IMG/VR virus record: IMGVR_UViG_3300034104_002622
Coordinates: 1-64,000 of that record
Strand: one strand, 5' to 3'
Length of the DNA: 64,000 nucleotides
Origin: a virus
The notes under the pieces were generated by a model that was given only the letters and a program-made list of their open reading frames with translations, made no database searches and was not told the origin of the DNA. Both the position numbers and the translations under genes were made by a program. Below, one piece after another: positions 7,212 through 61,128 of this stretch; within the stretch, counting starts at the first letter, position 1, and every line of letters starts with the position of its first letter.

Positions 7212-7474
7212 GCGACAACGAAACATCAGAGCTTTCCCGCGAGTGGCGGCAATCCGTCCGTGATGAAATGCGGAAGAATGGCGAAAAGCTGGATATGGTT
7301 CTTGTGGAGATTGGAAAAATCCGCAACGAGTTCGCCCCTGTTGATAGGCATGAGGATTTAGCAAGCCGCGTCCGTAGCCTAGAGGAAAATCAAGCTCGCT
7401 TTCTTGGTGGAATTCTGATACTTAACTTCATTGGCGGAATTGCTCTGGCAATTATAATGAAAATCTGGAAATGA
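7208..7474 (+). CDS. Holin-like membrane protein
   Basis: Coiled coil plus one C-terminal TM helix; ATGA overlaps on both sides; directly before the endolysin. Confidence 0.55.
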   Translation: MSDNETSELSREWRQSVRDEMRKNGEKLDMVLVEIGKIRNEFAPVDRHEDLASRVRSLEENQARFLGGILILNFIGGIALAIIMKIWK

Positions 7475-12967: not shown

Positions 12968-13100
12968 TTTGACACGCTCGCGTAATCTGCTCTTTCAAAC
13001 AAATCAAATAGGGTGACAATCCCTAAAACTTTATTGGATTTTAATTATTTTCAATCTTCTCTTGTCTTTTAAGCAAGGGGTAATTACTATTTCTCAAAAG

Positions 13101-25800: not shown

Positions 25801-28800
25801 TCAACTAACGAAACAATCAACCTTATTCTCCAAAACATCCCAGACGCAATCCTCTACAAACCAACCAAGCAAACAAAAGCCAAAAACGAAGCCTACTTTG
25901 GGACGCGGTTTTTTGTTCCTATGGATGGTTCTCCTCCGGTGATCTACGTGGGAGACACGAGCAATCAGGAGGACAACAGGGTTCTCATCGAGCAAGCGCT
26001 TGGTTATCTCACCCGCCAGAAGACCGCAGAGGCCGATTTGATCGCTCAGAGGCTTATTCAGACGGCTTCCAGCATCCGGCTGGCACTAAGTCCCATAACG
26101 CACCTAGAGGAGCTAATACGCGGCCTAGGAAACAAAGCTGATTCCATCGACAATTTTATCCGTCAATACACAGATGAGCTCGCCCTAGCTAATCCAGCCT
26201 CAATGGATGGTTTAGACGAGGCTAAAAAGGCTGAGTTAAGTGGAATGATCAGAGCCTACTTCATGAAGATGCAGGACATCGGATTGATCAACACCGCCCA
26301 AAAAGCGGAACTAAACAAGATCACCGCGCTTCTGAACGAGACATCCCCTGAAGACAGCCGGAATTCTTATTCCACAGAGCGCTCACTTCTCAGTGATTCT
26401 GACCAACGTGCAGTTGAAAGAGAAAGGGACTATATAAGGCTTATGGCGGCAGACCCAATCAATGATTCAATTTCTTTGATTGCTGAAGTTTGGAGCAATC
26501 CAGAAGCTAAACGACTGTTGGATCGTGTGATGATTGGGGATAACATCGTCAACACGCTCGACTCTCTTTCCGATCAAACCCTTGCCCGTGGCATTCAAGC
26601 CGTGAAGCAAATGGGTGAATCCAATCCAGAGGATCAGACAATCGCTGATCATTTTGATTCCGTTAATTCCCAAGAAGTGGCTCAGGACAACCTCAATGAA
26701 GAGGGTTCTGAGGACATCGACAACAGGGACGTTGACACATGGGCTGATGAGTATGACAAAGCCCTAGAGCAAGCTAGGAAAGAGGCTGGTGAGCAATCCG
26801 ATCTTGAGAAACCACAGGAGCTTTCTACTGAAGACAAGGAAAAGTTTCTTGCTCTTGTTCCATCGGCAAACAACATCCGTCGATTCTTCCGTGCTCGCTT
26901 GTTCGACAAGGCCGAGTTTGGCCCAATGGACGACAAGTTAGCTGCTATTGTTGAGGATTACTCCCAGAATGGGGGGTTGAGCCCAGCAGATGCGTTGCTC
27001 TTCAATACCTTGATGGATGTGGTGAGCGTTCAAAAGACGCTACAAGCTCCCGTTATTGTGGATAACAACAGCGATGTCACTCCGGGTCGTGAAATTCTTG
27101 GTGATCTTGGCACTCGTGATGGCGCAAATCCTATAGTTGGAAACAACGAGGGATCAAAATGGAGGGGTCGCCGTGGTGAGCGAGCTCCGTTTGTTGGGGC
27201 ATGGCACACGTTAATGACTGGAAGACAGAACGGAAGAACCGCTCCTACTCTTGTTTTTGAACGGAAACGCTATCAAAAGTTTGCTGGTGGATTTCTTGAT
27301 CGTGTTCCTTTTATTAATGAGATAATTCAGACTCAAGCTGAAAAATCAATTAATGAAGCTGTCGATAATTACAATGAAGCTAAGCATAAGAATTTGCCTA
27401 ATTTTATTTCTTATCCACGTGCATACGTTGACATCCCGCTAACTCAGGAGGTTTACGAGCAGATTGGTTCTTACCTGCCTACTGGCAAGCTTGCTGCGGC
27501 TGAGGCCGAAGTAAGGGAGAATATCCAGAAGATGTTTAAGTTGCGCGAGAACGCAGAGAGACAGCGGGATAAGGCCAAGGCTGTAATCGAGGAGTTTGAG
27601 AATCGGGCTCTGGAGAATCCATTGTTTGAGCGTATTCAGCAATGGCAATTCCAAGGAAACGTCCGTAGCATGATTGAGGCTCAAATCTTGGATGAGGCCT
27701 ACAATACAGCTTTGGAGGTTAAGTCTGCTGCTGGTGGGGATACAAGGCTTGAGAAACTGCTGAACACCTACGCTACAAAATCACGTTTTCAGAGTGATCG
27801 TTACAAAGAAGTTTTCAACGACATTCAACAGGATGCTATTCGCCTTCGTCAGTTGATTGCTAATGCTGATGCGCTGATTGAGGCAGAGCAAGAGGCTACT
27901 GGTGAGATTGTGAAAGATCGTGGGGTCGTTTACTACGCTGATCCAAAAATTTTTCTTCAGCAGAAATTATTGAATAGCAATATCCAGAAGCTCAATCAGA
28001 TCGTTAACAAGGACATGGAATCCGTATGGCGGCTTGTTATCGAGGATGACAATAACGCTAAGTCGGTATTCTCTGAGAACTCCAAGAAGTTCATCAAGAT
28101 TAATGAAGTGGAAGACCTTTTCAAATTTAGGTTTGGAATGCTTGAAGATGATTTAACGAGGATGTTTTCTCGTGATGGTTTGCGTAATGTGTTTCTTCGT
28201 CCGTTGGTTGAACAAGCGGTTGGCGGGTTTGGTCGGGAAACTTCTTCTCTTGCTTCCCGCGAGATGCAGATGCCGACGAAGACCACGGCTAAGAAAAAAT
28301 CGAAAGAGATTGAAGCAGTAAGGCTGCAAGCGAAGCGTCAACGCAGAAAGATGATTTCTCGCCTTGTCAATATGATTAAGCAGGGCAGCACACGTAATGA
28401 GATTAAAATGTATCTGACTCGTCAGCTTGAAGGTCGTTTTAACGCGCTAGAAAGTAATGCGAATAGTCCATTCAATGATTCTTTTCGCGCTATGCTGGAT
28501 GAGATTTCAATGCCTAGTGATGCGCTTGTTGAAATCCTTCGCTATGACGAAGGAGTTAAGAGTACGGAAGAAGCAGCAAGGCTTACAAAAGCAGAGAACG
28601 TCTTATTAAAAAGTGAGCGCTTACTGGCTCAGATGAACGACCCAAACGTCACAGTTAAATCTGGTGGATATTTTTCTCGTCTGGCTTTTAATAATACAAG
28701 CGATGCTCTCGCTGGTATCCACACTCACATCGGTAGCGATCAATCTTTAAATCCGCTTGGTGGTCGCCACAAAGTCCCTATCACCATGACGTTTGTCCCT

Positions 28801-31800
28801 GAGGACGCGTTAAGTCCAATGGTCACTGAGATGACCCGCAAGGATGAGCTTGCGGCCTACCGCTCTAAGTGGAACAAGGAGTTTAAGGATGCAGCTAATC
28901 CGTATGAGTTTTACATTAGGCAACAAGCTATCTCTCGCGCATTGAGCGACTACGCTGAAAAAGCTGACGTTCTGCACCGTGCAATTAAGCAACAAGAAAC
29001 CTATATCAACAACTACAACCCAGCAGCCATCATCCAACAAGTTACGGATACGATGGCTATTCAGGACAGGCTCTCACAAGAGCGGATTAACCGTATCAAA
29101 GCTGATTCTGAAGGAGTGAGCCATCATGCTGTTGCACCGGACGTAGTAGCCCTCTTAGCCGTCCCTGAAGAGCAGAGCTTCTACTCTGTGAGTAACGTGA
29201 AGGAACTCAACAAGCTCGCTGATAAGGCGAAGCAGAAAGGCCTTGAGTTATCGAAGGCTATTGATGAAGTGAAGGGTTACGAGACGCGGATTGCACAAGC
29301 AAAGAACAAAGGCCAATTCATGCAAGCCGACAAGCTTGGAGTTCTTTTAGTTAAGGCTAAAGCAAATAGGGATGGCATTGCCGACGATCTTAAGACCATT
29401 GGGAAACGTCGTGTGGCTCTTCGGGCTGCACGTAGGGTTTCTAGGCACACGATTCCAGAGAACATGAAAGAGCGCCGCGAGTTGGTTGCTCACCTTGTTA
29501 ATGATGGCGAATGGTTGCTTCTTGGTTCCATCACCGCAGCGCAGGACTTGAAGAACCGATTCGTAGTTCAGAGCGGGAAAGCCCAAAGTGGAGAGTCAAT
29601 GATGCGTGACATCGTATTGAGTTCCGTTCCTGAAGAAGATGAATCAGAAGACGGGACAGTTCACCTCCAGAACAGGATGGGCTTTACTTCCGTATACAGG
29701 AATGAAGCATGGACTCACACTGATTTCACATCTCCCGCTTGGAGTCTCGCTGCAAATTCAACCAGAGAAAGCGCATCAAAACAATTTGCTGCTCGCTATT
29801 CATCGAACGTAGTTGAACGAGCCAATAGAAGGCTGGCAGAAAGAAGGAATGATCCACTTGCTCGCGCTGGAGACGAAGACAGGAAGATTGACACGAACAA
29901 CACTTTCGTTAAAAAACAACTGGAGATGTTTGAGTTCTACGTTGAATCCATTGCTCTTGCCTATGACCGAAACACTTTGAGTGGGGAAACAAGGAAAAGG
30001 GTTTTTGATTTCCTGAAAACGCTAGCGGATGGAAAGATTGCCCAATCGAATGATGCTGCTGAGTCTGTCGATCTCATTGATCTTTATGCCTCGGTTGTTT
30101 CTGAGATTGAAGGACCGGAGGCTATGAAGCTGCTGATTGCTGGTATCGTGCCGCTGTCGGGACCTGCTCGCTTCTCAATGAAGGCTTTGCACCACCATGA
30201 GTCTAAGCTAAGAATGACGTTTATGAAGACCCATATTGCTCAGATGGAGGCCCGTAGGCTTCATGGATACCTTGAGCACGGCTTCGACCTGAAATCAGGA
30301 CGCAACACCCACACAAACGAATTCAACAAAGCAAAGGCAAAACTAGAAGAAAAGGCAAAGCTCTTAGGATTGGATTCTTTGCAGCAGTCAATTCCTTATG
30401 TGATTGCTAGTCTAAAGGGTTTGACTAAAACTAGATCGGCTTCTCTTGCTGGCAATCTTTCGATGTGGGCTAGTGATTTCCAAACAGGATCGCGTGATCT
30501 TAAGCAGTTGTTTGATTCTCAAAATGAATTAGCAGCGGGACAAAAGTTTGGGAAGATACGCAAGTATTTCACAGCGGAGCATGTGGATGTCATTCGTGAC
30601 TACGCAATGGTCAAAGAAGTGTATGAAACCATTCGCCCTATTTTGCGTGATGTTGGAACGAGCCCGTCTGGAACTGATAAGAACGCTCATGCTTTGGAAT
30701 TGATCAATAAAGCTATCGCTGCGCTAGAGGAAAAGATTCCAGCGAACTTGCAACAAGCATCCAAAGACTACTCTGACACTTTAGGAACAACTTTCAAAGG
30801 CTTATCGGATGCTTCTGAGTTGACATTGATTATGATGAGTCATCCTGATGCCACTCCAGATGAAGGACAGGCTTACCAGAAGTGGTTGCATGGAGGATTA
30901 AGAGGTGACGCTACGTTCGTGACTACAGTTCCTCTTCGCTACGGACACGCGGCCAATCCTAAGTCTATTGGTAAAAGTTTTGAACCCCGCCAATACAAGG
31001 AAGACCCATTAGAAGAGGTTGGCATGATGAGTCTTTCGCTTTTGGGTGGTCCGGGAAAACAAGCTAGAACTCGTAAAGATAACGAAGATGCTCAAACTTA
31101 CCGCCCAATCAATCTCAATGGGCTGTCTGGGACTATCGCTCTTTTGGATGATACTCTTTACCGCCTTAACGTAACTCCTACCTACTCTATTCTCAGGAAG
31201 ATTGTAGGAAAGGAGGAAGTGAATCAGCGGAATCAGGGTGAGGTTGTTGGATCAAAGGTGATGGCTAAGCTTGGTGATTCTCCCGAAGGTGAAATAGCTA
31301 GGAAGTGGCGTGTGGCGCTTGGTGCAATCTCGGAAGAAATGGACATCAAGGTTGCTAACGACATGAAGTTTGGAGTGGCGAACACTGCTTTCTCTGAAAC
31401 CCTCAATTACCTTTCATCGTTGATGATGGTTAGGTCGTTGTTTTCTTTCCAGCAGTTCTGGAACCAATCTGGTCCATCAGTATTGGGATACATTGTGAAA
31501 AAGTCTGTGACGGGGAATTACAAGGATGCTATTCAGATGGTTCGCCTACTATCTAAGATTATCGCTTCAAAAGCTGGAGGTGATTCTCAATTTAACGACG
31601 AAGCTAAGCAGTTTGTAGCGAATGTTGCTACTTGGGTAAACTTCCGTGGTGCTGATGGCATTGATAAGCTTGACCAACTTCGCAGGAAGCAAGTCAGGCA
31701 TGGCGCTGGGCTTGGTAAAAAATGGTCAGGATATGCTCTTAATCAGATTACCAACCTTGGAGAAAAGTCTCTTGACTTTAGTATAGCTAAAGTTGAGCGG

Positions 31801-32904
31801 GCTTTATCTCGCTCTATTTTCATTACTGAATTGTTAGCTGAACTTCGATGGATGGAAAAGAACGGACAAATTGAAAAGGCTCCAAAGGACGAAATGGAAT
31901 TGATTGGCAGGAAGGATTTTAAAAACATTCCCATGGAAGCTGTTCAATACGCTGAGGCGAAAGTGAGCGATCACATGGGGGTTGCTGACCAAGCCAAGAA
32001 AGCAATGCCTTTCCAAAATCTCACTAGGTCTCCTTCGTGGAATGCCTTGATCCGCACCATATCTAGGTTCTCTAATCACCAAGCCTCCACTTCAAGCGGT
32101 ATGGCTGCTATGCTGCCGATGATCTGGAAGGCTGAGACAGGAGAGGATGGTAAGCTCACAATTGGTGGTCAGAGAGCGAGACAAGAAGCCATCGAGAACA
32201 TTACGGGAACGGTAATCCAAAACAGCTTGTTCCACATTATGAAGCTCAAGGTGCTTGTTCCAATTGTTTTGTCGGTGATTTACGGAATGGGTGACGACGA
32301 TGACGAGGAAGCTCAAGTTAGGGCTCAGGAGATGGCCGACAAATTAATGGCCCCGGACGAAGAGGGTAATCCAATAGTCAATGCGGCCAAAGCGGTGATT
32401 TTTGGAAAGCAGTCCCAATTTTTCAGGGACGAAAAAACACCCGAGGCTGCGGCGGCTTCGGCATATGCTTCGCTAGGATCGAGCATTGTGTCTGAAATAA
32501 TCCCTATGGCTCACCCGCTAACTGCGGCATTTGGGTTTTATCCTGCGCATTTTGCGTTTAAGGCAGCGATTACGAACCAGTTGATTCAAGATGCTACAGC
32601 AAAAATGACTGGATTAGATTCAGCACAAAGCAGATGGGAAGATGATGCGGTTTACATTTACGAGCGAGAAGAAGGTGGGGTGCAGACTGCTATGGGCATG
32701 ACTGCTCCTAGTTCTGTTGTTTACGACTTGGGTGCTGCGGCCGCATTATCAACAGAAGCTGCTTTCGCAGAAGAATCTAATGTCTTAGACATTATTGCTT
32801 ACATGATAAGCGAAGTCGTTCCGGTTACTCGTGAACTTCGCGGAAGGTTGAAGCAGAAGGTTGAAGAGTCTGTCTGGGAACAGCGTTCAGAAGATAATCG
32901 TTAG
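16843..32904 (+). CDS. Giant (5353 aa) internal virion / DNA-ejection polyvalent-type protein
   Basis: Uninterrupted 16-kb ORF; G/A-rich membrane-like N-terminal region; zincin HEMGH...E motif; last gene of the structural operon. Confidence 0.75.
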   Translation: MNFDNYDYGSNTDQLQEDQPIKAPVEFDFTDALGIVKADKWVGANQTRRIATVDKAFEKIVEQAESDKSRKIKWNRLGGNKELVEMPLFHSDGSWTSQGKEWLGQQRNYLEAAANDETGGMVVNPLSGEFEIASHLAPLLGRKQKQFDPFKDFDDIKQDVESEVVDGKPRDFTYEAFLERVNQGKDPDSPSAIDPDNKAMREQFESRKRLNDFDPSTMGNTPFLMKEGVPIFNPKMLNEPTKIESAIETSELSVADKKMALINFRDTYNKLGAGIVNEVSDADDMQMHKMPLNAIADIFGVDRNNISKRFRDHMAQEGGKGSLYTFIKENEAEFSGEQFGWADKLNNAFWNANRSTGGGALWLLTAGQNKGVNQFLSDSARSSDSAFEGMGGVENYRVLGMDFTNKGMYDMAGQVASMLATGGASLALKGGIKAAGTVAGATAGSLVPKAGVLGAAAKGVMASDEAILAATKALAPNTAKNLTIKALRDPSAYIGGLQASGMSFGSTFNQVMEETGDYDLATKKANIEGISSGLSAFIATSVFNRIAPGAEKMMTGVEGSLSGSIASRIAFAKASGSSATRKATIKAFEDLATDEVTRKLLSKGMAEAADKAAKQAGLKGFGPAAGVVSEFFEESTDTALNDVISAVLDDSKTWTDTVWDNIGEKFSEYMAAGVMGAFGGAMGESVGGLTSFSKASREQRAKAVKEHAFAKWETIKGNIDSFGESEIADKDGKFRPIAEFLAWDGATSEEKSKALVNAARERTGLQISLEGRAVAPVVAKPPEAVEKPKEGASIMDDLFESRPKDENGNDMEWQEAKITYGPEHKLVLGGKEVTMQQVDLPRDEGVGALITDADGKKTHISAAKAKKMLEESKPLKKGLRVGASPEMKQRAAMLERFSADSNPAQYAKKNETSKQSTTVDADNKQIAPPSETRSRDSAPPQDDGDSGIAGDGGAKQTRQSDIGAPTSTTLIPAAQKLLDEKVSEERLIELASWKKESGSLDPSNEQKTLNQIAAKAVLKSQGKWDDANNSPLAQTKSETPAPVSTEAAPEVKDTEEDPPFRPVNDPEEIAYRKNKTIAWAKNTESERGSNVGRKTIFEKIAALFDSSPKTGNKEEVLERLKKFGAMGHVSGWLNEDAIREDYRSGLKYIRGEVADSKGSEQKKLLFERMGITPDEFLSFINDHGGEEAYVEFIKAHEMGHIASGHRGQKTINQGDLLDDQHMGWETEANHWALETLGFYEWRKQQPNKPNEKQTENQGDEAKGPQVGKIHRPANSNGLTGDIVAKFAKDGNSIIVADNETAANNEIKRQGLEGRPVLVVNAATASNRAAVEDAIEDFQSGDKQLGSEVESNTPAMVDPLMEDPTAPKFFADISSLDTEDKFGGKWYKSGDTYTYTPTQGKVLPIGLNSVVAIDGEPDAVLLLVGEKDGVYEFRKVDYKVMAKTLGEDFKGYGKFSKDWNDNRLKEAGRHIEAHLDKLFSGKLSEKEFDSMLRKIMAVVAPGVRLESIAFEKLENGEFFVARRTTPKDGDGNATGLAQTKIVLDRQAFMANLAKVFRGYRTGQDAFYNKLVGNEVARQLAAHVDEELTHVVGMKEFKDIEVIGLFDELVALSRKGKQKFISSVFNQIAARRVKGKTLDSFTEDEKYMVGAETLRALNQILTTGSWTEEQTNDAKRLLFALNEDAAEAKGPLKTVIELLRRYMLKIRRMLHMRLLMGQLPPNLQAMLKRQETAYVRANLFGDVDMIKDKNAQEKMEMARESLLSSRKMIGKVAMKNTGALVELKRIVKTLNLNIEDIIEIDYRNGTIRLIDDSKKAFNGMSFQDLIKRYEPDVNLEDINKALSELEMEGSVFAIMQDLGLAYRALEAARNLTPDLLPILDDSYGLSVSEGDEEGATRSDKEDAAETEKYRVMQMLVAAAPAFDNGSAFIKRKMAEVDSLAKNDSLVLSQMNLDVIAVVAELDLGVANDAIKLSRIAEMVKYSPGQEVMDLNMAAPDFRKNLLKRLHERATINSTDSLNYDGESLIGVHRILFGKRPDYKPFVSTRMKRREMLEDLEAFRLAQMTEAQADRLQAEQLTPEQVKSLKLLRDAQVESAIAAGQYEQYGSSAFVERARLRARRMRSEAGVNMEVANRLYQDYLTYTKALDDYNKLATTAIREMIGEESLDTKGFGMSHQDYNYNMDELVSQKPENVIQVQKDMLARRRGKMFSEAEYETVTPVRAGLPKEQSHSIAHGYPYKDVAWNVANKDKSMTLITVTQSDPITPWFPKKEGDQPPSDSFKVTALPTSSNPLFKRGILSSAAFRGNINAMQFLQMLDRGITGDTAERYMATLGYVSEVVENEDFDDIQYESIDRILPRYAVSRLYAFQKEELYLGSSNGKNRALGIKDLNKTFGSNLDKNHPDYKNSIQSLIDSIRDYATKLSRSTNPDLTINDIDGLQTLAGRSAPVINDRASEVLKYLAEFEAEVNSISYAIRTAGEKATRNEMVGFSSRLFALFNTKTNSAFENLDVAIRLANVSSEIARQEANSFKRIIPNVIREKTRTARDAGYASSELFRETRDSMIDPVTLTNMKWWINRFGKDSLASVGGTWAIDLMERAGRIGFGTAGEMLVTDAAWVWTQAPVFEFDSNGDVVMEPLLDEDGKPVMEFYIEDGLQKIQPAMKFKAKLDEFGEPLTELRQVHIDMSDDDAIAYLISEKDNAGRAPISSNMNEIGSSVKDAKIGRSSSESKQSPYEKSLRQMDVERQLQKKFITEAGLLIGLRIGVDKSADDAQDFLNRLLALDSDSSSYNDVLRDGLSGLFGIDPSNVGELIGKFKDFQQGIFEIKSAPITSRTEEFVTQKKLDLFSPSGTIAENRIDPFSFLMEMIEFKSRFERDLIDAARVGSVDLETGELISGGRGDFRLTEALRTLSNHATAGGQNPQLRDDLAAMNESMIRKGRKTLFSEVGLAQTNQEEAAVIAKMLHDESLGKGEVYLYDANTFAKMGDQGIISTNETINLILQNIPDAILYKPTKQTKAKNEAYFGTRFFVPMDGSPPVIYVGDTSNQEDNRVLIEQALGYLTRQKTAEADLIAQRLIQTASSIRLALSPITHLEELIRGLGNKADSIDNFIRQYTDELALANPASMDGLDEAKKAELSGMIRAYFMKMQDIGLINTAQKAELNKITALLNETSPEDSRNSYSTERSLLSDSDQRAVERERDYIRLMAADPINDSISLIAEVWSNPEAKRLLDRVMIGDNIVNTLDSLSDQTLARGIQAVKQMGESNPEDQTIADHFDSVNSQEVAQDNLNEEGSEDIDNRDVDTWADEYDKALEQARKEAGEQSDLEKPQELSTEDKEKFLALVPSANNIRRFFRARLFDKAEFGPMDDKLAAIVEDYSQNGGLSPADALLFNTLMDVVSVQKTLQAPVIVDNNSDVTPGREILGDLGTRDGANPIVGNNEGSKWRGRRGERAPFVGAWHTLMTGRQNGRTAPTLVFERKRYQKFAGGFLDRVPFINEIIQTQAEKSINEAVDNYNEAKHKNLPNFISYPRAYVDIPLTQEVYEQIGSYLPTGKLAAAEAEVRENIQKMFKLRENAERQRDKAKAVIEEFENRALENPLFERIQQWQFQGNVRSMIEAQILDEAYNTALEVKSAAGGDTRLEKLLNTYATKSRFQSDRYKEVFNDIQQDAIRLRQLIANADALIEAEQEATGEIVKDRGVVYYADPKIFLQQKLLNSNIQKLNQIVNKDMESVWRLVIEDDNNAKSVFSENSKKFIKINEVEDLFKFRFGMLEDDLTRMFSRDGLRNVFLRPLVEQAVGGFGRETSSLASREMQMPTKTTAKKKSKEIEAVRLQAKRQRRKMISRLVNMIKQGSTRNEIKMYLTRQLEGRFNALESNANSPFNDSFRAMLDEISMPSDALVEILRYDEGVKSTEEAARLTKAENVLLKSERLLAQMNDPNVTVKSGGYFSRLAFNNTSDALAGIHTHIGSDQSLNPLGGRHKVPITMTFVPEDALSPMVTEMTRKDELAAYRSKWNKEFKDAANPYEFYIRQQAISRALSDYAEKADVLHRAIKQQETYINNYNPAAIIQQVTDTMAIQDRLSQERINRIKADSEGVSHHAVAPDVVALLAVPEEQSFYSVSNVKELNKLADKAKQKGLELSKAIDEVKGYETRIAQAKNKGQFMQADKLGVLLVKAKANRDGIADDLKTIGKRRVALRAARRVSRHTIPENMKERRELVAHLVNDGEWLLLGSITAAQDLKNRFVVQSGKAQSGESMMRDIVLSSVPEEDESEDGTVHLQNRMGFTSVYRNEAWTHTDFTSPAWSLAANSTRESASKQFAARYSSNVVERANRRLAERRNDPLARAGDEDRKIDTNNTFVKKQLEMFEFYVESIALAYDRNTLSGETRKRVFDFLKTLADGKIAQSNDAAESVDLIDLYASVVSEIEGPEAMKLLIAGIVPLSGPARFSMKALHHHESKLRMTFMKTHIAQMEARRLHGYLEHGFDLKSGRNTHTNEFNKAKAKLEEKAKLLGLDSLQQSIPYVIASLKGLTKTRSASLAGNLSMWASDFQTGSRDLKQLFDSQNELAAGQKFGKIRKYFTAEHVDVIRDYAMVKEVYETIRPILRDVGTSPSGTDKNAHALELINKAIAALEEKIPANLQQASKDYSDTLGTTFKGLSDASELTLIMMSHPDATPDEGQAYQKWLHGGLRGDATFVTTVPLRYGHAANPKSIGKSFEPRQYKEDPLEEVGMMSLSLLGGPGKQARTRKDNEDAQTYRPINLNGLSGTIALLDDTLYRLNVTPTYSILRKIVGKEEVNQRNQGEVVGSKVMAKLGDSPEGEIARKWRVALGAISEEMDIKVANDMKFGVANTAFSETLNYLSSLMMVRSLFSFQQFWNQSGPSVLGYIVKKSVTGNYKDAIQMVRLLSKIIASKAGGDSQFNDEAKQFVANVATWVNFRGADGIDKLDQLRRKQVRHGAGLGKKWSGYALNQITNLGEKSLDFSIAKVERALSRSIFITELLAELRWMEKNGQIEKAPKDEMELIGRKDFKNIPMEAVQYAEAKVSDHMGVADQAKKAMPFQNLTRSPSWNALIRTISRFSNHQASTSSGMAAMLPMIWKAETGEDGKLTIGGQRARQEAIENITGTVIQNSLFHIMKLKVLVPIVLSVIYGMGDDDDEEAQVRAQEMADKLMAPDEEGNPIVNAAKAVIFGKQSQFFRDEKTPEAAAASAYASLGSSIVSEIIPMAHPLTAAFGFYPAHFAFKAAITNQLIQDATAKMTGLDSAQSRWEDDAVYIYEREEGGVQTAMGMTAPSSVVYDLGAAAALSTEAAFAEESNVLDIIAYMISEVVPVTRELRGRLKQKVEESVWEQRSEDNR

Positions 32905-37827: not shown

Positions 37828-39663
37828 TTATTTCCAAGGACATTCAGAATACATTGGCATTGGACCAGATGGTTTTGATGTGAACCTTTTTGTTTCTTTG
37901 TGAAACCAAAAATTAGTCAATGGTGTTTCTCCTGTAGTTCTTTGCTTTCTTACAATTAATTTTCCGCATGGAGTAGACTCAAAGAATCTTTCAATATCAG
38001 AACTGTCAAAGTCACTGTCAGTCATTTCAGCCATGCGTTCACTTTTTGCCATGTCGCGCCATACTGTGATAATGTTATGTGGCATATCGCCCCACTCTGA
38101 TGCTCCTCGAATTTCTGCCATTCCGGGTGGTTTGGATGTGTTTTCGGGAGGCTTGCGTGGATGAGCTACAATCATTAAATGAACTGGATACTTGGAAACA
38201 AATACACGCAGTCCGTCAATTGCTTCTGCTTGAGCTGTATTATCACCACGGTCAATGTTCATTGTCATTACGTTGTCGATTACAAATGTATCGACTCCAT
38301 AACGTTTATGAGCATGGATGAATGTTGATATTAGGTGTTTTGGGTCAGCTCTCTCCATACTTTTATACATGAACACTAAATTGCTCAGGTGATCATAAGC
38401 CAACTCAAAGTCATCCGTATATGGAAGATTGGGATAAGCTGTGAACTGTGTAAGTATTTGAGAGAAGGTAAGCTCAGGTGGTTGCTCGAATGAAGCAACG
38501 CATACTTGCTTTCCTTTCGCCGCAAGTGATGCAACTTGATTAGCCACAGCAACAGATTTACCATGGAAAGAAAAACCAAACCACAAAGTAATCTCATGCT
38601 TTCTGAATGATAGGTCAAAATTAGGCAAGAAGAATGGATCGCCATCAACAAGATGGTCTCCCTTCATGTAAGAGCGAACACCTTCTCGCATTGATGTTGG
38701 ATCAACAATTTCAGCAATTGGTTCTGGCGCAGTGTTTTCAATCACTGTAGCAATTTCTTTACCTCTGCCAGCACGGAGCATATCATTTGCATCCTTGAGT
38801 GGTAGTGTAACAATAAGGCATCGTTCTTGACCGAGCCTTGCTGCTGCATCTTTTGCTGCTTTCTTACCTGCTTGATCGTTATCAAACAACAATACAATCT
38901 CATCGTAATGAGAAAGAAATTGATAGTCTTCTGTGATCCATTGTGTATTAGAACAACCCATTGGTATGCTTACCGCTGGAATGCCCATTTCCCAACAAGC
39001 CATTGCATCCCATTCGCCTTCAGTAATTACTAGTTTCTGAATGCCGGTATCTGGATCGCAAACATCTTTTCCAAATAAAGACATGATAGGATCGGAGCTT
39101 GTCCATGTATCTTTTTTGCCATCTGGTTTCAACGTAAGCCCCCAATGCTTAATCATGCCAAGCCTTCCATAAGCGTCATAATATGGAAATGAGATTTTCC
39201 CTTGAGCATCTGTGCCTACTCCATACTTAAGCAATGTTTCTTCACTGATCCCGCGATTCTTTGCATATTCAATACAAGATGGGGACAAGGTGCGTATATC
39301 CTTAGCTAATTTTTCTGGGTCTTTTGATTTACTTACAGTTCCAAAGGATTGAATTGGTTTGATGTTAAGGAAGTTAGCAAGCCACTGAAGTCCTTCCTTG
39401 AAAGACATTGACTTGTTGAGTGATACAAGTCTCCATGCTTTTCCTTTTTCCCCTGTAGCGAAATCAATGAAGTAACCAGCATTATTAGCTCGTGTGCTAA
39501 TAAGCATTGAGTCACCTTTTTCACCGTTTATATTACCAATTCGATACCCTTGGCTTTCTCGTTTTGCATTAGGGTAAATGGTAAGAACAAATTCATCTAT
39601 CCTGCTAGCTAATGCGCTTTTGATTTCTTCTAAGTCGTAGAAGCGACCTTCTTGTTCATTCAT
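37828..39663 (-). CDS. T7 gp4/Twinkle-type primase-helicase
   Basis: TOPRIM ITEGEWDA and FDNDQAG; Walker A GFSFHGKS; VIDN, VAHPRK, IRGAS (SF4 motifs). Confidence 0.92.
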   Translation of the reverse strand: MNEQEGRFYDLEEIKSALASRIDEFVLTIYPNAKRESQGYRIGNINGEKGDSMLISTRANNAGYFIDFATGEKGKAWRLVSLNKSMSFKEGLQWLANFLNIKPIQSFGTVSKSKDPEKLAKDIRTLSPSCIEYAKNRGISEETLLKYGVGTDAQGKISFPYYDAYGRLGMIKHWGLTLKPDGKKDTWTSSDPIMSLFGKDVCDPDTGIQKLVITEGEWDAMACWEMGIPAVSIPMGCSNTQWITEDYQFLSHYDEIVLLFDNDQAGKKAAKDAAARLGQERCLIVTLPLKDANDMLRAGRGKEIATVIENTAPEPIAEIVDPTSMREGVRSYMKGDHLVDGDPFFLPNFDLSFRKHEITLWFGFSFHGKSVAVANQVASLAAKGKQVCVASFEQPPELTFSQILTQFTAYPNLPYTDDFELAYDHLSNLVFMYKSMERADPKHLISTFIHAHKRYGVDTFVIDNVMTMNIDRGDNTAQAEAIDGLRVFVSKYPVHLMIVAHPRKPPENTSKPPGMAEIRGASEWGDMPHNIITVWRDMAKSERMAEMTDSDFDSSDIERFFESTPCGKLIVRKQRTTGETPLTNFWFHKETKRFTSKPSGPMPMYSECPWK

Positions 39664-43560: not shown

Positions 43561-43974
43561 CTATGAAAGCAGCTTGTTAAACTGTCTTCCGATACGTTCT
43601 TGCGCTGTTATTTCGCCGTGGCACTTTTTGCAGACGACACGAAATCCTTCTGCGGGACAAAACAGCCTCTGAATAAACCGATCCCATGAGACGAATCCTT
43701 CTGATCCGACAACTGGGATGATATGATCCGCTTGAACAGCGTTTTGGGGGAATAGATTTCCGCATACGGAGCATTTGTGTAGCTTGCATTTGCGCCCAGT
43801 GGCGGGGTTGATTCCGTGCTCGACGAAGGCAAGGTTGATAGCTCGGTATTTCTCGGGCCACCTAGCTCCTCGCAAGGCGCTTTTGATAAAGCTAATGTAT
43901 CTTGCTTCTGTCCATTCTCCATTGCAGTAGGGGCGTTCGATGTCGGTTCTTTTTTTTGTCGATTTTTTAGCCAT
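43561..43974 (-). CDS. HNH endonuclease
   Basis: CSVC...ADHIIPV...CKKCH. Confidence 0.85.
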   Translation of the reverse strand: MAKKSTKKRTDIERPYCNGEWTEARYISFIKSALRGARWPEKYRAINLAFVEHGINPATGRKCKLHKCSVCGNLFPQNAVQADHIIPVVGSEGFVSWDRFIQRLFCPAEGFRVVCKKCHGEITAQERIGRQFNKLLS

Positions 43975-43984
43975 GACTAAATAA

Positions 43985-44390
43985 AAAGTGAAGCCAGTTA
44001 CCGTATCTGGCGCTAGCTTGACGCTACTAGCGGTTTCATAAATACCACATATTTCAGAGGGTTTCTTAGTTTATGCTTAAGGCAACGTCTTTCCGTTGTG
44101 TCACTATTTTACCAGCTTTTGTCAATTGTTTTGACGCATTTTCGGACTACTGGTTTCCGAGCCGTGCCTTCCGTCTCGTTGCGGCTATGCGCTTCCGTTT
44201 ATGATCCCAAGGGAGCTTATACAGGGACGACGCAGAAATTGTCCAGCTTACCGTTTACTGGGACGGCATTACGCTCCGTCGGTTCCGTTTCAATCCTTGG
44301 AGCACCATGCAACTCTAGGTATTTATCCGTATTCTCGTTTTACCGTAGTCTCTTGGTTCTATCTGCTGCACGGTTAACACAACAGCAAGA
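43985..44390 (-). ncRNA. Candidate structured ncRNA with repeated ACGG(A/T) motifs
   Basis: No credible ORF; 10 ACGG copies on the - strand, several in hairpin loops; ends in a stem plus U-tract. Confidence 0.55.
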
Positions 44391-44392
44391 GA

Positions 44393-44863
44393 TTATTCTG
44401 CTTTTGCACCTTGAAGCATTGCATTGGCAGCGAAAGTGAATGCTACTTCTGCAAGTTCAGGGCGTTCTTTGCGGATCATGTAATCGGCTGCTCTTATTCC
44501 AGTTTCAAGACATTCTTTGATTGTTGGCTTCTCAACTGGCTTTTGGATGTCTTCAGGCTTAACTGCTACTGCTCCTTCAGGTTTTGATAGCTCATCACAA
44601 TTAAGACTTGCTGATCCATTGAAGGTGTTTTTTGTAAACCTTCCTCGCAGTGTCAGTGTTTCTCCTAGTGGTAGTTTCCATTCAGCGGCTGTTTCCCACA
44701 TTGTCATGAACATTTCGTCTGATCCGCTTTTCAATACTACGGATGAGAAGATTTTATTGTTCTTTGCTGTTTTGGGATTGAACTGCTTGTGAATGGTTAC
44801 TGGGCCAATTGAAATGAATGTCTCTCCATCTTTGGCCGAGGCTACTTGGTGGAGAGTGCTCAT
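44393..44863 (-). CDS. OB-fold ssDNA-binding-like protein
   Basis: VVLKSGSDEMFMTMW...LGETLTLRG OB-like pattern; lies next to recombination genes. Confidence 0.55.
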   Translation of the reverse strand: MSTLHQVASAKDGETFISIGPVTIHKQFNPKTAKNNKIFSSVVLKSGSDEMFMTMWETAAEWKLPLGETLTLRGRFTKNTFNGSASLNCDELSKPEGAVAVKPEDIQKPVEKPTIKECLETGIRAADYMIRKERPELAEVAFTFAANAMLQGAKAE

Positions 44864-45157
44864 TTAGAATGCTTCTTCTGAACTGCCGCTATTTGCTGCA
44901 ATTTCTTTTGCTGTTTTGATGTCACCTTTTGAAAACACAACCTTACCATTACCTAGATAGGTTTTGGTTTTCTTTGCTTCGCGATCTTCTTGGCTTTGAG
45001 AAAGCTGAACGGATACGTTATTTCCATAATTGTCATTCTTGTCATCGACAAAAATGGACAAAGGAATGAATGTGGCGGTTTTACCTTTGATCATTTGATC
45101 TTCGGTGAGTTTTGCGATGTCTTCTTTTTTGATGCTGGCGCTAATAATAAGTCCCAT
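44864..45157 (-). CDS. Small phage SSB-like protein
   Basis: DNYGNN...QSQEDREAK...YLGNGK; acidic/aromatic C-terminus EEAF. Confidence 0.7.
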   Translation of the reverse strand: MGLIISASIKKEDIAKLTEDQMIKGKTATFIPLSIFVDDKNDNYGNNVSVQLSQSQEDREAKKTKTYLGNGKVVFSKGDIKTAKEIAANSGSSEEAF

Positions 45158-45185: not shown

Positions 45186-45776
45186 TTACTTAATGAAAAC
45201 TGAAGCGCATTCTGAATAAGCTGCGACTACGAGTGGTTCTTTCCCATAGGGAGTGTTTCTGGCTTTTTCCATCTTGGCATTTAGATCCTCTAAGGATTTT
45301 TGGATCTTAAAGGATTCGATGATTTTGTCCATCATTCCGTCACTTTTTTGCGAGGTGGCTTTACTTTGATCAGAATTGTCCTTTCCGTGCGTTTCCGTAG
45401 CGTCTGCGTCTTTGGTGTCATCAATGCAGAACAAGCCGTTCAGGGCGTATTTACGGGCGTAGGAGGAGCAAGCGCCCGTCACTTGAGCGTCATCCATACC
45501 TTTTTTGCTTTCAGCTTCACGAGCAAATGCTGTGGTGGAGATGCTTTCTCCTGCATGAGTGAATGTTGCTGTAGCTTTTACGTAAACACGCCCACCAACT
45601 TCAACAATTTCATCGCTGATGGTTAGGATTGCGTCCACTGCATGAAGAAATGGCTTGAGGGCTTCAAGAATTCCCTCTGCGGATCTGTATTTGTAATTTC
45701 CAAATTTGTTCTCAAGGTTTTTTGGAGCGTTGAGGTCAACTTGGATTGTTCTTAGTTTGTCTGCTGCTTTTTGCAT
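45186..45776 (-). CDS. erf: ERF-family single-strand annealing protein
   Basis: NKFGNYKYRSAE...KKGMDDAQVTGACSSYARKYALNGLF. Confidence 0.9.
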   Translation of the reverse strand: MQKAADKLRTIQVDLNAPKNLENKFGNYKYRSAEGILEALKPFLHAVDAILTISDEIVEVGGRVYVKATATFTHAGESISTTAFAREAESKKGMDDAQVTGACSSYARKYALNGLFCIDDTKDADATETHGKDNSDQSKATSQKSDGMMDKIIESFKIQKSLEDLNAKMEKARNTPYGKEPLVVAAYSECASVFIK

Positions 45777-47756: not shown

Positions 47757-48599
47757 TTATTTTGATTCACGTTTGTATTGTTCGCAAACATCTTTGAATC
47801 CACAGAATGAATTGCAGAATGTTTTTTCACCTTTGCGAATTTCTACTGTTTGATTTGGTTTTTTGAGTTCTTCTGCTTCTGATAGCGTGTCGCATAGTTT
47901 TGAAGCTCGCTTGGCTCCGGGCGACATGATTGCGTAAACTGATGGCTTTTCCCATTGCTCTTCTGCTGTGCATGGGCGTGGTGAGCCATTATAAGCCTTC
48001 CAGTGGTCTTCTACGGTCTCTTTAATTAGCTTGGCTGCGAAGTCTTGATCATAGGGTTCTACGTAGATAGCAAAGGGTGTTTGCGGATACGTGGGGTCGA
48101 AGGTTGAGCGCATGTAGGACCAATCACGTTGAAGGTAAACAATTGAAACGTGTTCTACTTCATATCCATTTTTTTCTGCTAACCATCCATTGATTTGAAT
48201 TTGTTGGCGATGTTCTGGTTTCATTTTTTCCTGAAAACCAGCAGTGTTTTTGTAGTCGAACACTGTTTTATTTTCGTAGAAGTCTATTTGTCCTGAAATT
48301 GCAATGGTCTCTCCAAGATATGGATACTCATAGTGAAGTCGTTCTTCTGCTACTTCTCCGTTTTCAGTATCTACGTTATCTTCTAGGATGGAATGAATAG
48401 CTGTTCCCATCAAAGCATGGAACATAGTGTAGGGATTTTCTTGCTTTTCGTGGTTCTTTGCCAGCCATGTGCGTTGCGGAGGAGAGATTAACTGCGTGGT
48501 TGAAAATAAAGACTTTCCTTTTTCATACTTGTCTTTTGACAAAGCGCGAATGAACGGGCTAGGAAAGCTTTTGAGGTAGGATGCTGGTGTTTGTTTCAT
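47757..48599 (-). CDS. PD-(D/E)xK (Cas4-like) exonuclease
   Basis: GTAIHSILE, ISGQID, FDYK, QIQIN, C-terminal CxxxC-C; lies near erf. Confidence 0.85.
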   Translation of the reverse strand: MKQTPASYLKSFPSPFIRALSKDKYEKGKSLFSTTQLISPPQRTWLAKNHEKQENPYTMFHALMGTAIHSILEDNVDTENGEVAEERLHYEYPYLGETIAISGQIDFYENKTVFDYKNTAGFQEKMKPEHRQQIQINGWLAEKNGYEVEHVSIVYLQRDWSYMRSTFDPTYPQTPFAIYVEPYDQDFAAKLIKETVEDHWKAYNGSPRPCTAEEQWEKPSVYAIMSPGAKRASKLCDTLSEAEELKKPNQTVEIRKGEKTFCNSFCGFKDVCEQYKRESK

Positions 48600-49987: not shown

Positions 49988-50218
49988 ATGAAAGCACCTC
50001 AACAATCCTTGAAAGATTGGACAGCCCAAAAATGGCGAACCTCTGATGGTAAGCCAAGCAAGGGCAAAAAGAGGTATTTGCCTGATTCTGCGTGGAAGTC
50101 TTTGACGGCTTCTGAAAAGGCTTCCACGAATCGGGCAAAGGCTAAGGGTAATGCTCAAGGCAAGCAGTTTGTTAAGCAACCTAAGTCGATAGCTAGAAAA
50201 ACATCAGCACACAGATGA
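49988..50218 (+). CDS. Small basic protein (DUF5872-like, tentative)
   Basis: SLKDWTAQKWRT...RYLP...GKQFVKQPK. Confidence 0.7.
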   Translation: MKAPQQSLKDWTAQKWRTSDGKPSKGKKRYLPDSAWKSLTASEKASTNRAKAKGNAQGKQFVKQPKSIARKTSAHR

Positions 50219-50847
50219 GAAACGCCAACCTACCAAAGTGTCGAGTTTACGTCCGTTGTGATGCCTTTGGTGGCAGTGAGACAGAGTTTGAACCTGCGTG
50301 GTTAGTCAGCGTCCGAGCGATGCGTAATCGTCCATTTTGTTTTCAAGTTTGGGTAGATAAATACGCTGCTTGCTTTGACAAGATTCCGCCACAGTGCATC
50401 TACCATTACGAGCCGGATGGGAATCAAGCTAACTTACCGCTTCACAAGGTGCAAATGTGGGAGTGTTTATCTGGCAGCATTGAAGTCTGGCAGAAGAGTC
50501 AGCTTTGCGATGTGCCGATGCTTGTCAACATGGGTAAGGGTTTTGCTCCGATGACTGGGCATTACTGGTTTACGATTGATTTTTTACCCGAACATCAATG
50601 TGCAGGAATACTGGACATTGGTGACGTTGAGTTGCTGGAAGAGCACAAAGAGGGAAACGTGGTAAAGTTGTCGAACGGACAGATTGCCATCTACCCAAAT
50701 AATAGGCTTAAATGGTTGCCTATAAGCCTTGTGAAAGAAGGCGCGGCAGAACGCATCCCTAGCTGGGAGGTTGCCACAAACGAGCAATGGGACGACTGGT
50801 GGCAAGACTCATCAGAAATCCTCGGAGACTCCAAGTGGGCTTACTAA
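50215..50847 (+). CDS. Conserved phage hypothetical protein
   Basis: 210 aa; YWFTIDF...EHK...NGQIAIYPNNR. Confidence 0.75.
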   Translation: MRNANLPKCRVYVRCDAFGGSETEFEPAWLVSVRAMRNRPFCFQVWVDKYAACFDKIPPQCIYHYEPDGNQANLPLHKVQMWECLSGSIEVWQKSQLCDVPMLVNMGKGFAPMTGHYWFTIDFLPEHQCAGILDIGDVELLEEHKEGNVVKLSNGQIAIYPNNRLKWLPISLVKEGAAERIPSWEVATNEQWDDWWQDSSEILGDSKWAY

Positions 50848-58842: not shown

Positions 58843-58991
58843 GGTTGGTAGTCTTGGTGTATTTTTGTGTCGTGATCAAAAGATTCGTAGATTTCTTTTT
58901 TTATTGATTGAATTAATAGTTTTGTATCTTCAATCATTAGTTGCAGTATTAGTATTAGCATTCCTGTTAATGCGAATGTTAGAGTTATCAT
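58839..58991 (-). CDS. 50-aa membrane peptide
   Basis: MITLTFALTGMLILILQLM...; TGA overlaps the next ATG. Confidence 0.55.
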   Translation of the reverse strand: MITLTFALTGMLILILQLMIEDTKLLIQSIKKEIYESFDHDTKIHQDYQP

Positions 58992-59049
58992 ATTATATTG
59001 TTTTGGGAAAGCGTCTCCCCTAGAAATTCTTTATTTAGCCGAGGCTAAA

Positions 59050-59880
59050 AACCCAGTAACTAGGGAATTCGAATTGCTAGAGGAGACATTTACACACACA
59101 CTGAGAAAGTGATTGCCACTGGAGGTAGAGGGCGAGCTACTTGCGCCTCACTCATTCGTTCCATCTCCAGCGGCAAATTGATTGCTTCGCCCATGTTCTA
59201 GTTAGCATGGCTCAACCTGAGGCTTAGTGACTGCTGCTAAAGTCTACTTATTGCCTACGAAGCAAAGGGGTTTTGGTTGTACAAGTTACGTCTCCAAGAG
59301 TGGGATTGCACCATCTAGTATTCACTGGCATACGCCCTTACTGTTTTCACTTTACAACCAAAATTCATTACGTTTTTGAAAGTGGCAGTCTTTGTCAGCA
59401 ATTGGCGTGTGGAGACGCCTACGTTTTACACAGCAACCAAAGAGCTTATCATACTCATTTGGCTCTTTGCACCCGCTCCGTATCGTGATTACCGGATGCT
59501 GACTCACTGACAAAGACCTTTAGATAGCAGCTTACGGCTGCAAGTCGTAACGACTATGCTCAAACGGTCGTTAAGCGTCAGTGTGGGAGGAGTATTTTCT
59601 GCGTGGCTGCGAGGGCGCATACTCCATGGATATTTCTCACTCTTTAGCCATGACCTCATTTAAGCACCACATCTCAACCTTTGGTCAGGTCGCTCACGTA
59701 TCAGACCTCTGCCTACATGCTGTGACTGATAGCTAATCAGTTTGCCAAGGTGGGTTGAATGGGGCTGGCAAGTGTTCTTTTTTACCCTAAGTAAGATCGT
59801 CAGGTCATGCCCTCACTGCAAAGGCTGAAATGTGGTGACTGCTTACGCCAGTCAATCGAAGTGATGTTTTTTGTAGGCTC
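59050..59880 (-). ncRNA. Large highly structured ncRNA candidate (~830 nt)
   Basis: No credible ORF; many 7-12 bp helices, GNRA loops and G-U pairs on the - strand; a long-range pseudoknot. Confidence 0.75.
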
Positions 59881-59900
59881 ACTTATTTATCCCAGATTGT

Positions 59901-60688: not shown

Positions 60689-60736
60689 GTTCAAACTTAC
60701 TTGATTAAGGGTTTGATGCAAGTCTTAATTTGGAAC

Positions 60737-61128
60737 TGGAGCTGGCGGGAGTCGAACCCGCGTCCACAACACTGTTAAATACATTTTCTACAAGCTTAGT
60801 CCTTTCGGACATTGGGGACGCTGGTTAGGCGACCTTCCACCACTCAGTTTTTACGCCGCTGAGTTGCGTTGTTTGCCTTACTGTTTCAGGTCATCCGCCC
60901 GAAGGCACGGCGTAGGATGATCTTACCCGGTTTGTTTCCCTTCGTAGAGCGAGCGTTTCGGAGGGCGTGTTTTGCTTAGGCTACGAGAGCAACTGTGTTG
61001 CTTCCGAAGTTTCCGCGAATGACGTTGTTGCCATTTGTTTGTTTTGAGCGGCTTATTAAAGAGGCCAGCCGATCAACCTCTACTTGCTTATGTATCCTAT
61101 CGCGTTGTGTCGAAACCATTACAGCCCC
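60737..61128 (-). ncRNA. ssrA: tmRNA (392 nt), tag (A)GNNVIRGNFGSNTVALVA
   Basis: 5' GGGGCTGTAATGGTTTCGAC; 3' GGACGCGGGTTCGACTCCCGCCAGCTCCA with G3-U70 acceptor pair; tag ORF 61032-60976; CCA not encoded. Confidence 0.95.

Follow-up and report, generated by a model that had tools for sequence, protein, structure and literature searches.

A modular, pseudoknot-rich RNA fold predicted in an early-operon gap of a freshwater phage lineage

The 64,000-nucleotide (nt) stretch analyzed here, hereafter the window, comprises positions 1 to 64,000 of a viral record of 73,283 bases that is rated complete (IMGVR_UViG_3300034104_002622). On its minus strand, a 418-nt gap (43975-44392) separates the stop codon of the open reading frame (ORF) at 44393-44863, which encodes a predicted single-strand-binding (SSB)-like protein, P0001, from the start of the ORF at 43561-43974, which encodes a small HNH endonuclease. 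Comparison with relatives indicates that selection maintains a fold on the operon-sense (minus) strand of this gap, read as RNA, and that the gap belongs to a new RNA family of modular, pseudoknot-rich folds that is absent from Rfam 15. Its helices covary beyond their controls (0 of 500 shuffles; slid controls 8-53% paired). From 5' to 3', the modules are M1, a twin hairpin (TH-A), a connecting helix, M2, and a core composed of M3, Px, and a second twin hairpin (TH-B). Coordinates below refer to the minus strand unless another is given.

A non-coding gap built of conserved folds

M1 (44338-44392) is a two-helix module that begins 1 nt past the P0001 stop codon, which abuts it. Its outer helix P1 (7 bp, 44386-44392 with 44349-44355) encloses P2 (7 bp, 44379-44385 with 44363-44369), which is capped by the loop GUUAACCGU (44370-44378); the bulge AUAGAAC occupies 44356-44362, and the tail, ACGGUAA (44340-44346), may form a pseudoknot in the modeled structure by pairing of ACCGU with ACGGU. 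The fold was identical in all eight sequences collected first. Across ten sequences, the 14 pairs are 99.3% paired and 12 of them have changed on both sides, a result equaled by none of 500 shuffles and compared with 42-53% pairing in slid controls; this alignment was fitted to the model and so favors the structure. As a separate observation, the bulge contains the word AGAWCC, whose W covaries with one P1 pair (A with U-A, U with C-G). This joint change was seen independently in two or more pairs of close relatives and could reflect a base triple or an alternative pairing.

Two copies of the twin hairpin (TH) are present in the window, at 44243-44288 (TH-A) and 43993-44037 (TH-B). Its consensus is a flank, GRAACCG, followed by a 5-bp stem S1 with the loop nAGCGUCAWG and an abutting 5-bp stem S2 with the loop AWACGGUAA. 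TH-A comprises the flank ACGGAACC (44281-44288), S1 (44276-44280 with 44262-44266, loop AGCGUAAUG), and S2 (44257-44261 with 44243-44247, loop AAACGGUAA at 44248-44256), and it scores 63 bits with the TH model R1. Among seven distinct instances (alignment A5), double-sided changes are seen in nine of the ten stem pairs, and the paired fraction of cells is 98.9%; none of 500 shuffles matched this, and slid controls were 8-40% paired. Both hairpins quoted in the first-pass annotation are indeed present, CCAG-taaACGGtaag-CTGG at 44243-44261 and GCCAG-atACGGtaa-CTGGC at 43993-44011. In the window and in the relatives L002, L023, L125, and L040, TH copies lie 16-22 nt ahead of start codons. A role of TH as an intrinsic terminator was rejected, as runs of at least four T follow only 4 of 15 copies.

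TH-B forms the 3' part of the core M3-Px-TH-B (43993-44098; alignment A9), a unit of ~100 nt. The M3 hairpin (44083-44098) is followed by an invariant linker, CCUUAAGC (44075-44082), and helix Px (44070-44075 with 44037-44042) encloses a variable insert. TH-B itself consists of the flank GAAACC (44032-44037), S1 (44027-44031 with 44012-44016, loop UAGCGUCAAG), and S2 (44007-44011 with 43993-43997, loop AUACGGUAA at 43998-44006). In the ten sequences of A9, a plain MAFFT alignment that was not fitted to structure, the 20 core pairs are 96.0% paired and 11 have changed on both sides; none of 500 shuffles reached this, and slid controls were 16-37% paired. The alignment also contains 46 invariant columns, mostly in loops and linkers. 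The three-way junction with a U-tract that the first-pass annotation placed at this end is better described as helix Px followed by two adjacent hairpins, and the end is not a plain terminator; the supposed U-tract continues into a 16-bp near-palindrome (43966-43981). Two other pairings were considered and set aside: a long-range helix from RNAalifold, AUAAAUACC/GGUAUUUAU, competes with Px, and the relatives support Px only, and the 14 nt of complementarity that M1 and M3 show in the window are lost in L004.

Between TH-A and the core lie the connecting helix and M2. The connecting helix (44188-44234; UGCGU/GCGCA plus CUGU/ACGG, from RNAalifold) surrounds a small variable hairpin. In the alignment of the window with its closest relatives, L002 and L010, pairs 175/202 and 176/201 have each changed on both sides, and the 3' strand ACGG (44195-44198) becomes ACAG in L002 and GUAG in L010; L104 has CUAC-GAAA-GUAG at this position. 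M2 (44111-44186) was recognized as a pseudoknot domain by comparing sequence versions. It contains hairpin H1 (44160-44186) with a conserved 17-nt purine-rich loop, CAACGAGACGGAAGGCA, hairpin Sa (44143-44159), whose loop ACCAG pairs with the tail CUGGU (44111-44115), and hairpin Hb (44121-44135) between Sa and the tail. All three hairpins and the loop-to-tail pairing are kept in four sequence versions (window, L002, L010, and L021), in which loop and tail read ACCAG/CUGGU, GCAAG/CUUGU, ACCUG/CAGGU, and CGCA/UGCG; further versions occur in L104 and L125.

A second set of potential pseudoknots involves the ACGGUAA words. Each ACGGUAA, in the M1 tail and in the S2 loops of TH-A and TH-B, has an upstream AACCG able to pair with it, and the window element has three AACCG and three ACGGT. 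Single changes that retain ACC/GGU occur in L127 (ACCCG), L125 (ACGGUCA), and L002C.

The strand assignment is based on the helices themselves, which contain G-U pairs that would be mismatches on the other strand. Nineteen of 24 module instances are more stable in the sense than in the antisense orientation (Wilcoxon p 0.003, the instances being interrelated and not independent). No competing gene was found on the opposite strand. The plus-strand ORF at 44098-44439 (113 aa) is not a gene: it has no Pfam or PHROG match, none of 11 candidates from a search of 5.8 billion proteins scored as a homologue, and its frame in L010 is broken into 85 and 67 aa. The first-pass annotation had called the gap non-coding and named real homologues of this ORF as a refuting outcome, and the result leaves the non-coding reading standing.

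The modules are recombined within one phage lineage

Family members were collected by searches seeded with P0001 and with DNA patterns from the element. The P0001 family comprises 18 proteins in the protein collection, and element modules were found in 16 IMG/VR contigs (G000, the record of the window, included) and three metagenome contigs, all of one freshwater phage lineage; the 23 runs containing this DNA are freshwater or lake metagenomes. No modules were found among one genome per prokaryote species or among cultured phages, and relatives of P0001 were likewise absent from the species genomes (0 of 560 candidate stretches) and from cultured phages.

L002 and L010 are closest to the window, with 98% and 88% identity in P0001, 90% and 86% in the element, and 270-450 extra nt. 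L002 has two extra ORFs and ~270 nt of extra RNA modules ahead of the HNH gene. Other relatives combine the same modules differently and at other intergenic places, so that the modules behave as cassettes. In L040 and L004, M1 is directly joined to the core, with a total of ~175 nt, L040 being the minimal version. In L005, an ORF is inserted between P0001 and M1, and in L125 the order is P0001 (51% identity), a T-arm minihelix, M1, a strong 12-bp hairpin with a T-tract immediately 3' of M1, a tiny ORF, M2, and the core. A second TH lies 3.3-4 kb away in L004, L023, and L125. The most distant P0001 relatives, from L039, L021, and L127, share only 24-33% identity over the N-terminal half, with unchanged core loops.

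The non-coding stretches of family loci reach ~800-870 nt and in several relatives are accompanied by tRNA-like features. The same gap in L010 holds a tRNA-like gene (42 bits), L021 has a tRNA-Arg on the same strand, and acceptor/T-arm minihelices occur in L125 (about 4120-4170), L039 (about 4830-4925), and L021. The L010 gene (4032-4124; 93 nt) is an aberrant tRNA whose 'anticodon' call is 2 nt long, and the word ACCCACUCUCC stands 3' of it and also 3' of a helix-closed module in L004-L008. Variation extends to strains of the same waters, which appear to differ by modules because metagenome DNA contigs from three runs end inside 44006-44187 and one run, X23, contains the L002-type 250-nt insert.

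Several pattern matches were discarded. L013 matched the M1 pattern by chance, as it lacks P1 and lies between divergent genes, and the M3-pattern matches L126, L128, and L131-L133 represent unrelated or coding sequence. For a 16-mer from the M2 loop, 30 IMG/VR stretches were found, which by a rough estimate is near the chance number; the family context was present only in L003 (the L002 contig), L021, and L104, the other 27 being judged by their flanks only.

Scans against Rfam 15, at gathering score and with E up to 10, covered the window, the element, the minimal relative, and 11 loci and yielded no model matching the element; cmscan of the window and 11 relatives' loci returned only transfer-messenger RNA (tmRNA), tRNA, and chance-level matches. 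The latter included AniS within the HNH gene (E 0.13), ZTP in the wrong orientation (E 3.3), and CRISPR-DR9 (RF01322, E 7.4) at 44287-44310, where the match amounts to an 11-nt word, AGGAUUGAAAC, that equals the model's 3' end and is altered at two positions in L010. Other 400-725-nt gaps without long ORFs (12968-13692 and 58843-59900) gave nothing by Rfam at gathering score, and the module models R1 and R2 had no match in these gaps or in 65813-66350, which lies in G000 beyond the window. The modules are undescribed in Rfam 15 and in the literature searched, which also gave nothing on this phage group. They may be listed among the 10,006 candidate viral RNAs from IMG/VR that accompany PMC10690425, a study reporting 8,495 candidate structured RNAs from IMG/VR, including pseudoknots upstream of gp32.

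The ACGG excess and the protein-sponge reading

The first-pass annotation had interpreted the gap as a protein-sponge RNA on the basis of its repeated ACGG words. The excess as such is borne out: the minus strand of the gap has ten copies (six ACGGA, three ACGGTAA, and one ACGGC, at 44346, 44330, 44288, 44279, 44254, 44198, 44174, 44165, 44096, and 44004), the top count among all 418-nt stretches of both strands of the window (mean on the minus strand 1.14), and ACGG is the most frequent 4-mer of the element. Dinucleotide-preserving shuffles of the element contain 1.73 +/- 1.21 copies (maximum 7), and none of 5000 reached ten. A second ACGG-rich stretch on the minus strand (6872-7289, nine copies) is unrelated and lies inside plus-strand coding ORFs.

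The ten words differ in their fate among relatives, and only the three ACGGUAA are kept family-wide. That of M1 is present in 10 of 10 M1 sequences, and that of the TH loop is complete in 9 of 10 core sequences and retains ACGGU in all ten; a further TH instance, L002C, reads ACAGGUAA. The word at 44288 belongs to the conserved TH-A flank ACGGAACCG, that at 44279 is the 5' strand of TH-A S1, that at 44174 sits in the M2 H1 loop and is ACAG in L021, and that at 44165 spans the end of the H1 loop and the H1 3' strand. A few of these other words are identical only in the two close relatives. The words at 44330 (ACGA in L002 and L010), 44198, and 44096 are not conserved, and all of them lie in a stem or linker; as stem strands, 44198 changes to ACAG or GUAG with compensation and 44096 to GCGG or UCGG. 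The excess itself is confined to the window, L002, and L010 (10 copies versus 1.6-3.3 expected). Twelve more distant members have 1-6 copies, numbers reached by 44-206 of 300 shuffles, so that motif multiplicity is not conserved beyond the two closest relatives. We therefore regard the excess as real but as a by-product of stacked modules, with no conserved array of sites.

This bears directly on the proposal that the RNA titrates a GGA-binding regulator of the CsrA/Rsm type through about ten ACGG(A) sites. Six ACGGA and ten GGA within 418 nt would suit such a sponge, one GGA lies in the conserved H1 hairpin loop, and a recent preprint mentions that hairpin loops with AYGGAY have been put forward as Csr/Rsm sites (bioRxiv 10.64898/2026.09.22.753630). 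At most two of the ten GGA, however, are in hairpin loops: by our own reading of the helices, one is inside the H1 loop, one straddles the edge of the M3 loop, and the rest are in stems and linkers. L002 and L010 have ACGAA in place of the ACGGA at 44330, the words at 44198 and 44096 are changing stem strands, the distant members lack enrichment, and the one conserved word, ACGGUAA, does not contain GGA. The suggested Infernal check was also negative, with no match of the Csr/Rsm, TwoAYGGAY, or guanidine riboswitch models on the element at gathering score or with E up to 10, and no CsrA gene (PF02599) was matched in the 73-kb phage record. The element does resemble CsrB/RsmZ and TwoAYGGAY (RF01731) RNAs in being a non-coding RNA of a few hundred nt with a recurring G-rich word, partly in hairpin loops, and TwoAYGGAY likewise has two hairpins. 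Those RNAs, in contrast, show GGA (AYGGAY) in most loops, whereas here ACGG occurs in one hairpin per pair, within AWACGGUAA, and the loops of the pair are nAGCGUCAWG and AWACGGUAA instead of two AYGGAY. A CsrA-type sponge of ten equivalent sites is therefore highly improbable, and what stands of the original proposal is a structured, non-coding element; it may still be a decoy for some other conserved RNA-binding partner.

Genomic context

The genes flanking the gap are all on the minus strand and form an early recombination/replication set. Upstream lie a Cas4-like exonuclease (47757-48599) and Erf (45186-45776), both assigned with Pfam/PHROG, and a 97-aa ORF between Erf and P0001. P0001 (44393-44863, 156 aa) has no Pfam or PHROG match. 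Its AlphaFold2 model (mean predicted local distance difference test score, pLDDT, 87) comprises an oligonucleotide/oligosaccharide-binding (OB) barrel plus a C-terminal helical hairpin, and the top Foldseek matches are archaeal and human SSB/RPA OB folds (E 1.5e-4). The label 'SSB-like' is a fair one for the modeled protein because of this resemblance. Downstream, the HNH endonuclease (43561-43974, 137 aa) matches PHROG 3106 (E 6.7e-19), its Pfam HNH matches being under the cut-off, and is followed on the same strand by a 72-aa ORF, a DUF932 protein, and a primase/helicase (37828-39663) that is only 31% identical to proteobacterial phage proteins. The downstream neighbor of the element differs among phages (the HNH gene, an 85-aa ORF, and others).

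The 3' border of the element is a near-palindrome, TTTAG-N6-CTAAA (43966-43981), centered on the start codon of the next gene. Its general form is TTTAG-N5-6-CTAAA, mostly TTTAGYYnnGGCTAAA, and the window contains 15 copies of 15-16 bp (at 2828, 12883, 16272, 18243, 22173, 26211, 29346, 31777, 41342, 43966, 45794, 49067, 59034, 63022, and 63612) versus 0.15 expected, a number reached by none of 100 shuffles. Five copies are inside a 5353-aa ORF, and others lie 0-33 nt ahead of start codons of the early region. By our own reading, the better-kept arm, GRCTAAA, is on the plus strand at 14 of 15 sites, regardless of gene direction. The near-palindrome is present in 24 of 134 loci, nearly all of which belong to the family, and absent from 110; it marks the whole phage group and may serve in regulation or as a DNA signal that is specific to one strand.

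Other features of the genome lie apart from the element. The 5353-aa ORF is a single open frame (16843-32904, plus strand) that takes up a fifth of the genome and presumably encodes a giant structural or fiber protein. A full-length, one-piece tmRNA (60734-61128, minus strand, 137 bits) carries the tag peptide GNNVIRGNFGSNTVALVA; one genome per prokaryote species was searched with a 21-nt word of this tmRNA, with no exact match. A 210-aa ORF (50215-50847, plus strand) has a PHROG match annotated as ferredoxin, an auxiliary metabolic gene (E 3e-34).

Discussion

The explanation we tentatively prefer, while granting it somewhat less than even confidence, is an RNA island that is transcribed with the SSB-like gene and supplies a stable folded RNA whose invariant loops act on a slowly evolving partner. 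The region would be transcribed together with the SSB-like gene and would yield at least one stable folded RNA (~175 nt in the minimal L040 version), like the tRNA/stable-RNA islands of other phages. The invariant loops would then engage a partner that barely evolves, candidates for which include the host's RNA polymerase, the ribosome, an enzyme that processes tRNA or other RNA, or a small ligand. A slowly evolving partner is expected because the loops stay identical while the neighboring protein falls to 50% identity, and in the most distant members, at 24-33% identity over its N-terminal half, the loops are still unchanged. Beyond the conserved fold, each of these steps is one that we infer.

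Several results weigh against this reading or limit its support. With the pseudoknot left out of account, the M2 instances are more stable in the antisense orientation; RNAalifold energies for whole alignments hardly differ between the strands, and the single-sequence folding energy is ordinary (z -0.46). The sequences are related, by which shuffle controls overstate significance, and the AACCG/ACGGU pairing is invariant, so that covariation neither proves nor disproves it. The sole metatranscriptome, which consists of contigs only, covers 165 nt of the neighboring genes (44789-44953) and leaves the element uncovered; no sigma-70-like promoter or canonical terminator bounds the element, and T runs of at least four follow only 4 of 15 TH copies. 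Finally, M1 directly follows the SSB-like stop codon in the 8 of 10 copies whose upstream sequence is known, L005 and L125 excepted, and this position, together with that of several TH copies 16-22 nt before start codons, fits action in cis as well as in trans.

A cis-acting role, the close rival but on balance less likely than not, would make M1 a 3'-untranslated-region element of the SSB-like mRNA, serving stability, autoregulation, or translation-coupled folding, and TH and the core punctuation of the early operon, as processing sites, RNA-polymerase-binding elements of the put type, or operators of translation ahead of the next gene. Besides the spacing of TH before start codons, M1 lies 1-2 nt past the P0001-type stop in those 8 of 10 copies, the exceptions being L005 with its inserted ORF and L125 with its T-arm minihelix; M1 of L125 is followed at once by a hairpin and T-tract. 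The modules are separable by ORFs (L005 and L125) or stand at two places kilobases apart (L004, L023, and L125), every copy is in sense orientation, and none was seen to have its own promoter. There is also a precedent in T4 gp32, which is regulated via an RNA pseudoknot according to PMC10690425; like M1, that operator ties a pseudoknotted RNA to a phage single-strand-binding protein gene, but it lies 5' of the gene, whereas M1 lies 3', right after the stop codon. On the other hand, the downstream genes vary among phages, which makes gene-specific control unlikely, the islands are very long, lie beside tRNA-like genes, and exceed what punctuation needs, and T-tracts follow just 4 of 15 TH copies. 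A new small ribozyme or riboswitch, in which the ~100-nt core (or M1) binds a ligand or self-cleaves and so gates or cuts the early transcript, is improbable. The compact core with four helices, 46 invariant columns, and a possible pseudoknot would suit such a device, as would the occurrence of several copies per genome independent of the identity of the neighboring gene, a habit of small self-cleaving ribozymes, and the ligand site of the guanidine-II riboswitch is a pair of ACGR-loop hairpins. Here, however, a single hairpin of the pair carries ACGG, and its loop has 9 nt and is not a tetraloop, the downstream genes share no function, and no Rfam riboswitch or ribozyme model matches, the top match having E 3.3 on the wrong strand.

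More improbable still is a DNA-level element, either a replication origin, for which the first-pass annotation had suggested iteron or primase sites, or a single-strand initiation signal with hairpins formed in DNA. The element does lie between recombination genes (exonuclease, Erf, and SSB-like) and the primase/helicase, single-stranded DNA would also keep covarying hairpins, and assemblies from three runs break within it. But iterons and tandem repeats are lacking (none at score ≥30), the direct repeats are two-copy only (11-16 nt, 75-91% identity), and cumulative GC skew shows no turn near 44 kb, so that an iteron-based origin lacks support; GC content is ordinary as well (0.459 in the element versus 0.454 in the window). 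The G-U pairs and the sense bias of 19 of 24 instances mean that only one strand folds well, there are several intergenic module sites per genome, beside tRNA-like genes, and the assembly breaks fit module gain and loss among strains, as the insert in run X23 illustrates.

Known systems offer partial parallels to the fold. GOLLD, ROOL, and T4-type tRNA/stable-RNA islands are long, pseudoknot-rich phage non-coding regions beside tRNA genes, and the element shares with them the pseudoknots, the tRNA or tRNA-like neighbors, and variable inserts; it differs from GOLLD and ROOL in having no Rfam model similarity and in being built of small, separable modules that also occur alone. HK022 put RNAs consist of two adjacent stem-loops with conserved unpaired bases, occur in more than one copy per genome in early operons, and resemble TH in being sense-specific and independent of the downstream gene, but TH stems are only 5 bp and there is no known sequence relation. 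Guanidine-II (mini-ykkC, RF01068) RNAs have paired hairpins, each capped by an ACGR tetraloop. TH likewise pairs two hairpins, has an ACGR word in a loop, and could use the loop CG for loop-loop or pseudoknot contacts; unlike them, it has one 9-nt ACGG loop beside nAGCGUCAWG, is not in the 5' untranslated region of a transporter gene, and has no RF01068 match. Type III antitoxins (ToxI-like) lie upstream of a conserved toxin gene and consist of nearly identical direct repeats in tandem, whereas the element has no tandem repeats, its TH copies share loops only, and its downstream gene varies. The ncRNA arrays of UG27, described in bioRxiv 10.64898/2026.09.22.753630 as ~150-nt units beside a reverse transcriptase and two accessory genes, are comparable as phage-encoded RNAs of conserved structure and diverse sequence whose units are gained and lost between close relatives; in contrast, no reverse transcriptase (PF00078) was matched in this phage record.

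A bolder possibility, which we hold as speculative and rather unlikely, is that the core and M1 are new classes of autonomous RNA device, be it a riboswitch, a self-cleaving ribozyme, or an element that binds polymerase or the ribosome, and that the phage lineage shuffles them as cassettes. Their invariant loops and AACCG/ACGGU pseudoknots would then engage a universally conserved target and gate or cut early transcripts. Compact modules rich in invariant nucleotides are the usual source of new riboswitch, ribozyme, and protein-decoy classes, and both the minimal L040 version of 175 nt and the 100-nt core lend themselves to direct tests in vitro. A striking word count, such as ten ACGG, can arise from stacked structural modules and not from sponge design. 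Phage intergenic RNA is poorly charted, and the modules described here show unusually clean covariation, invariant loops, and pseudoknots, and are reshuffled between related phages and between strains of the same lakes.

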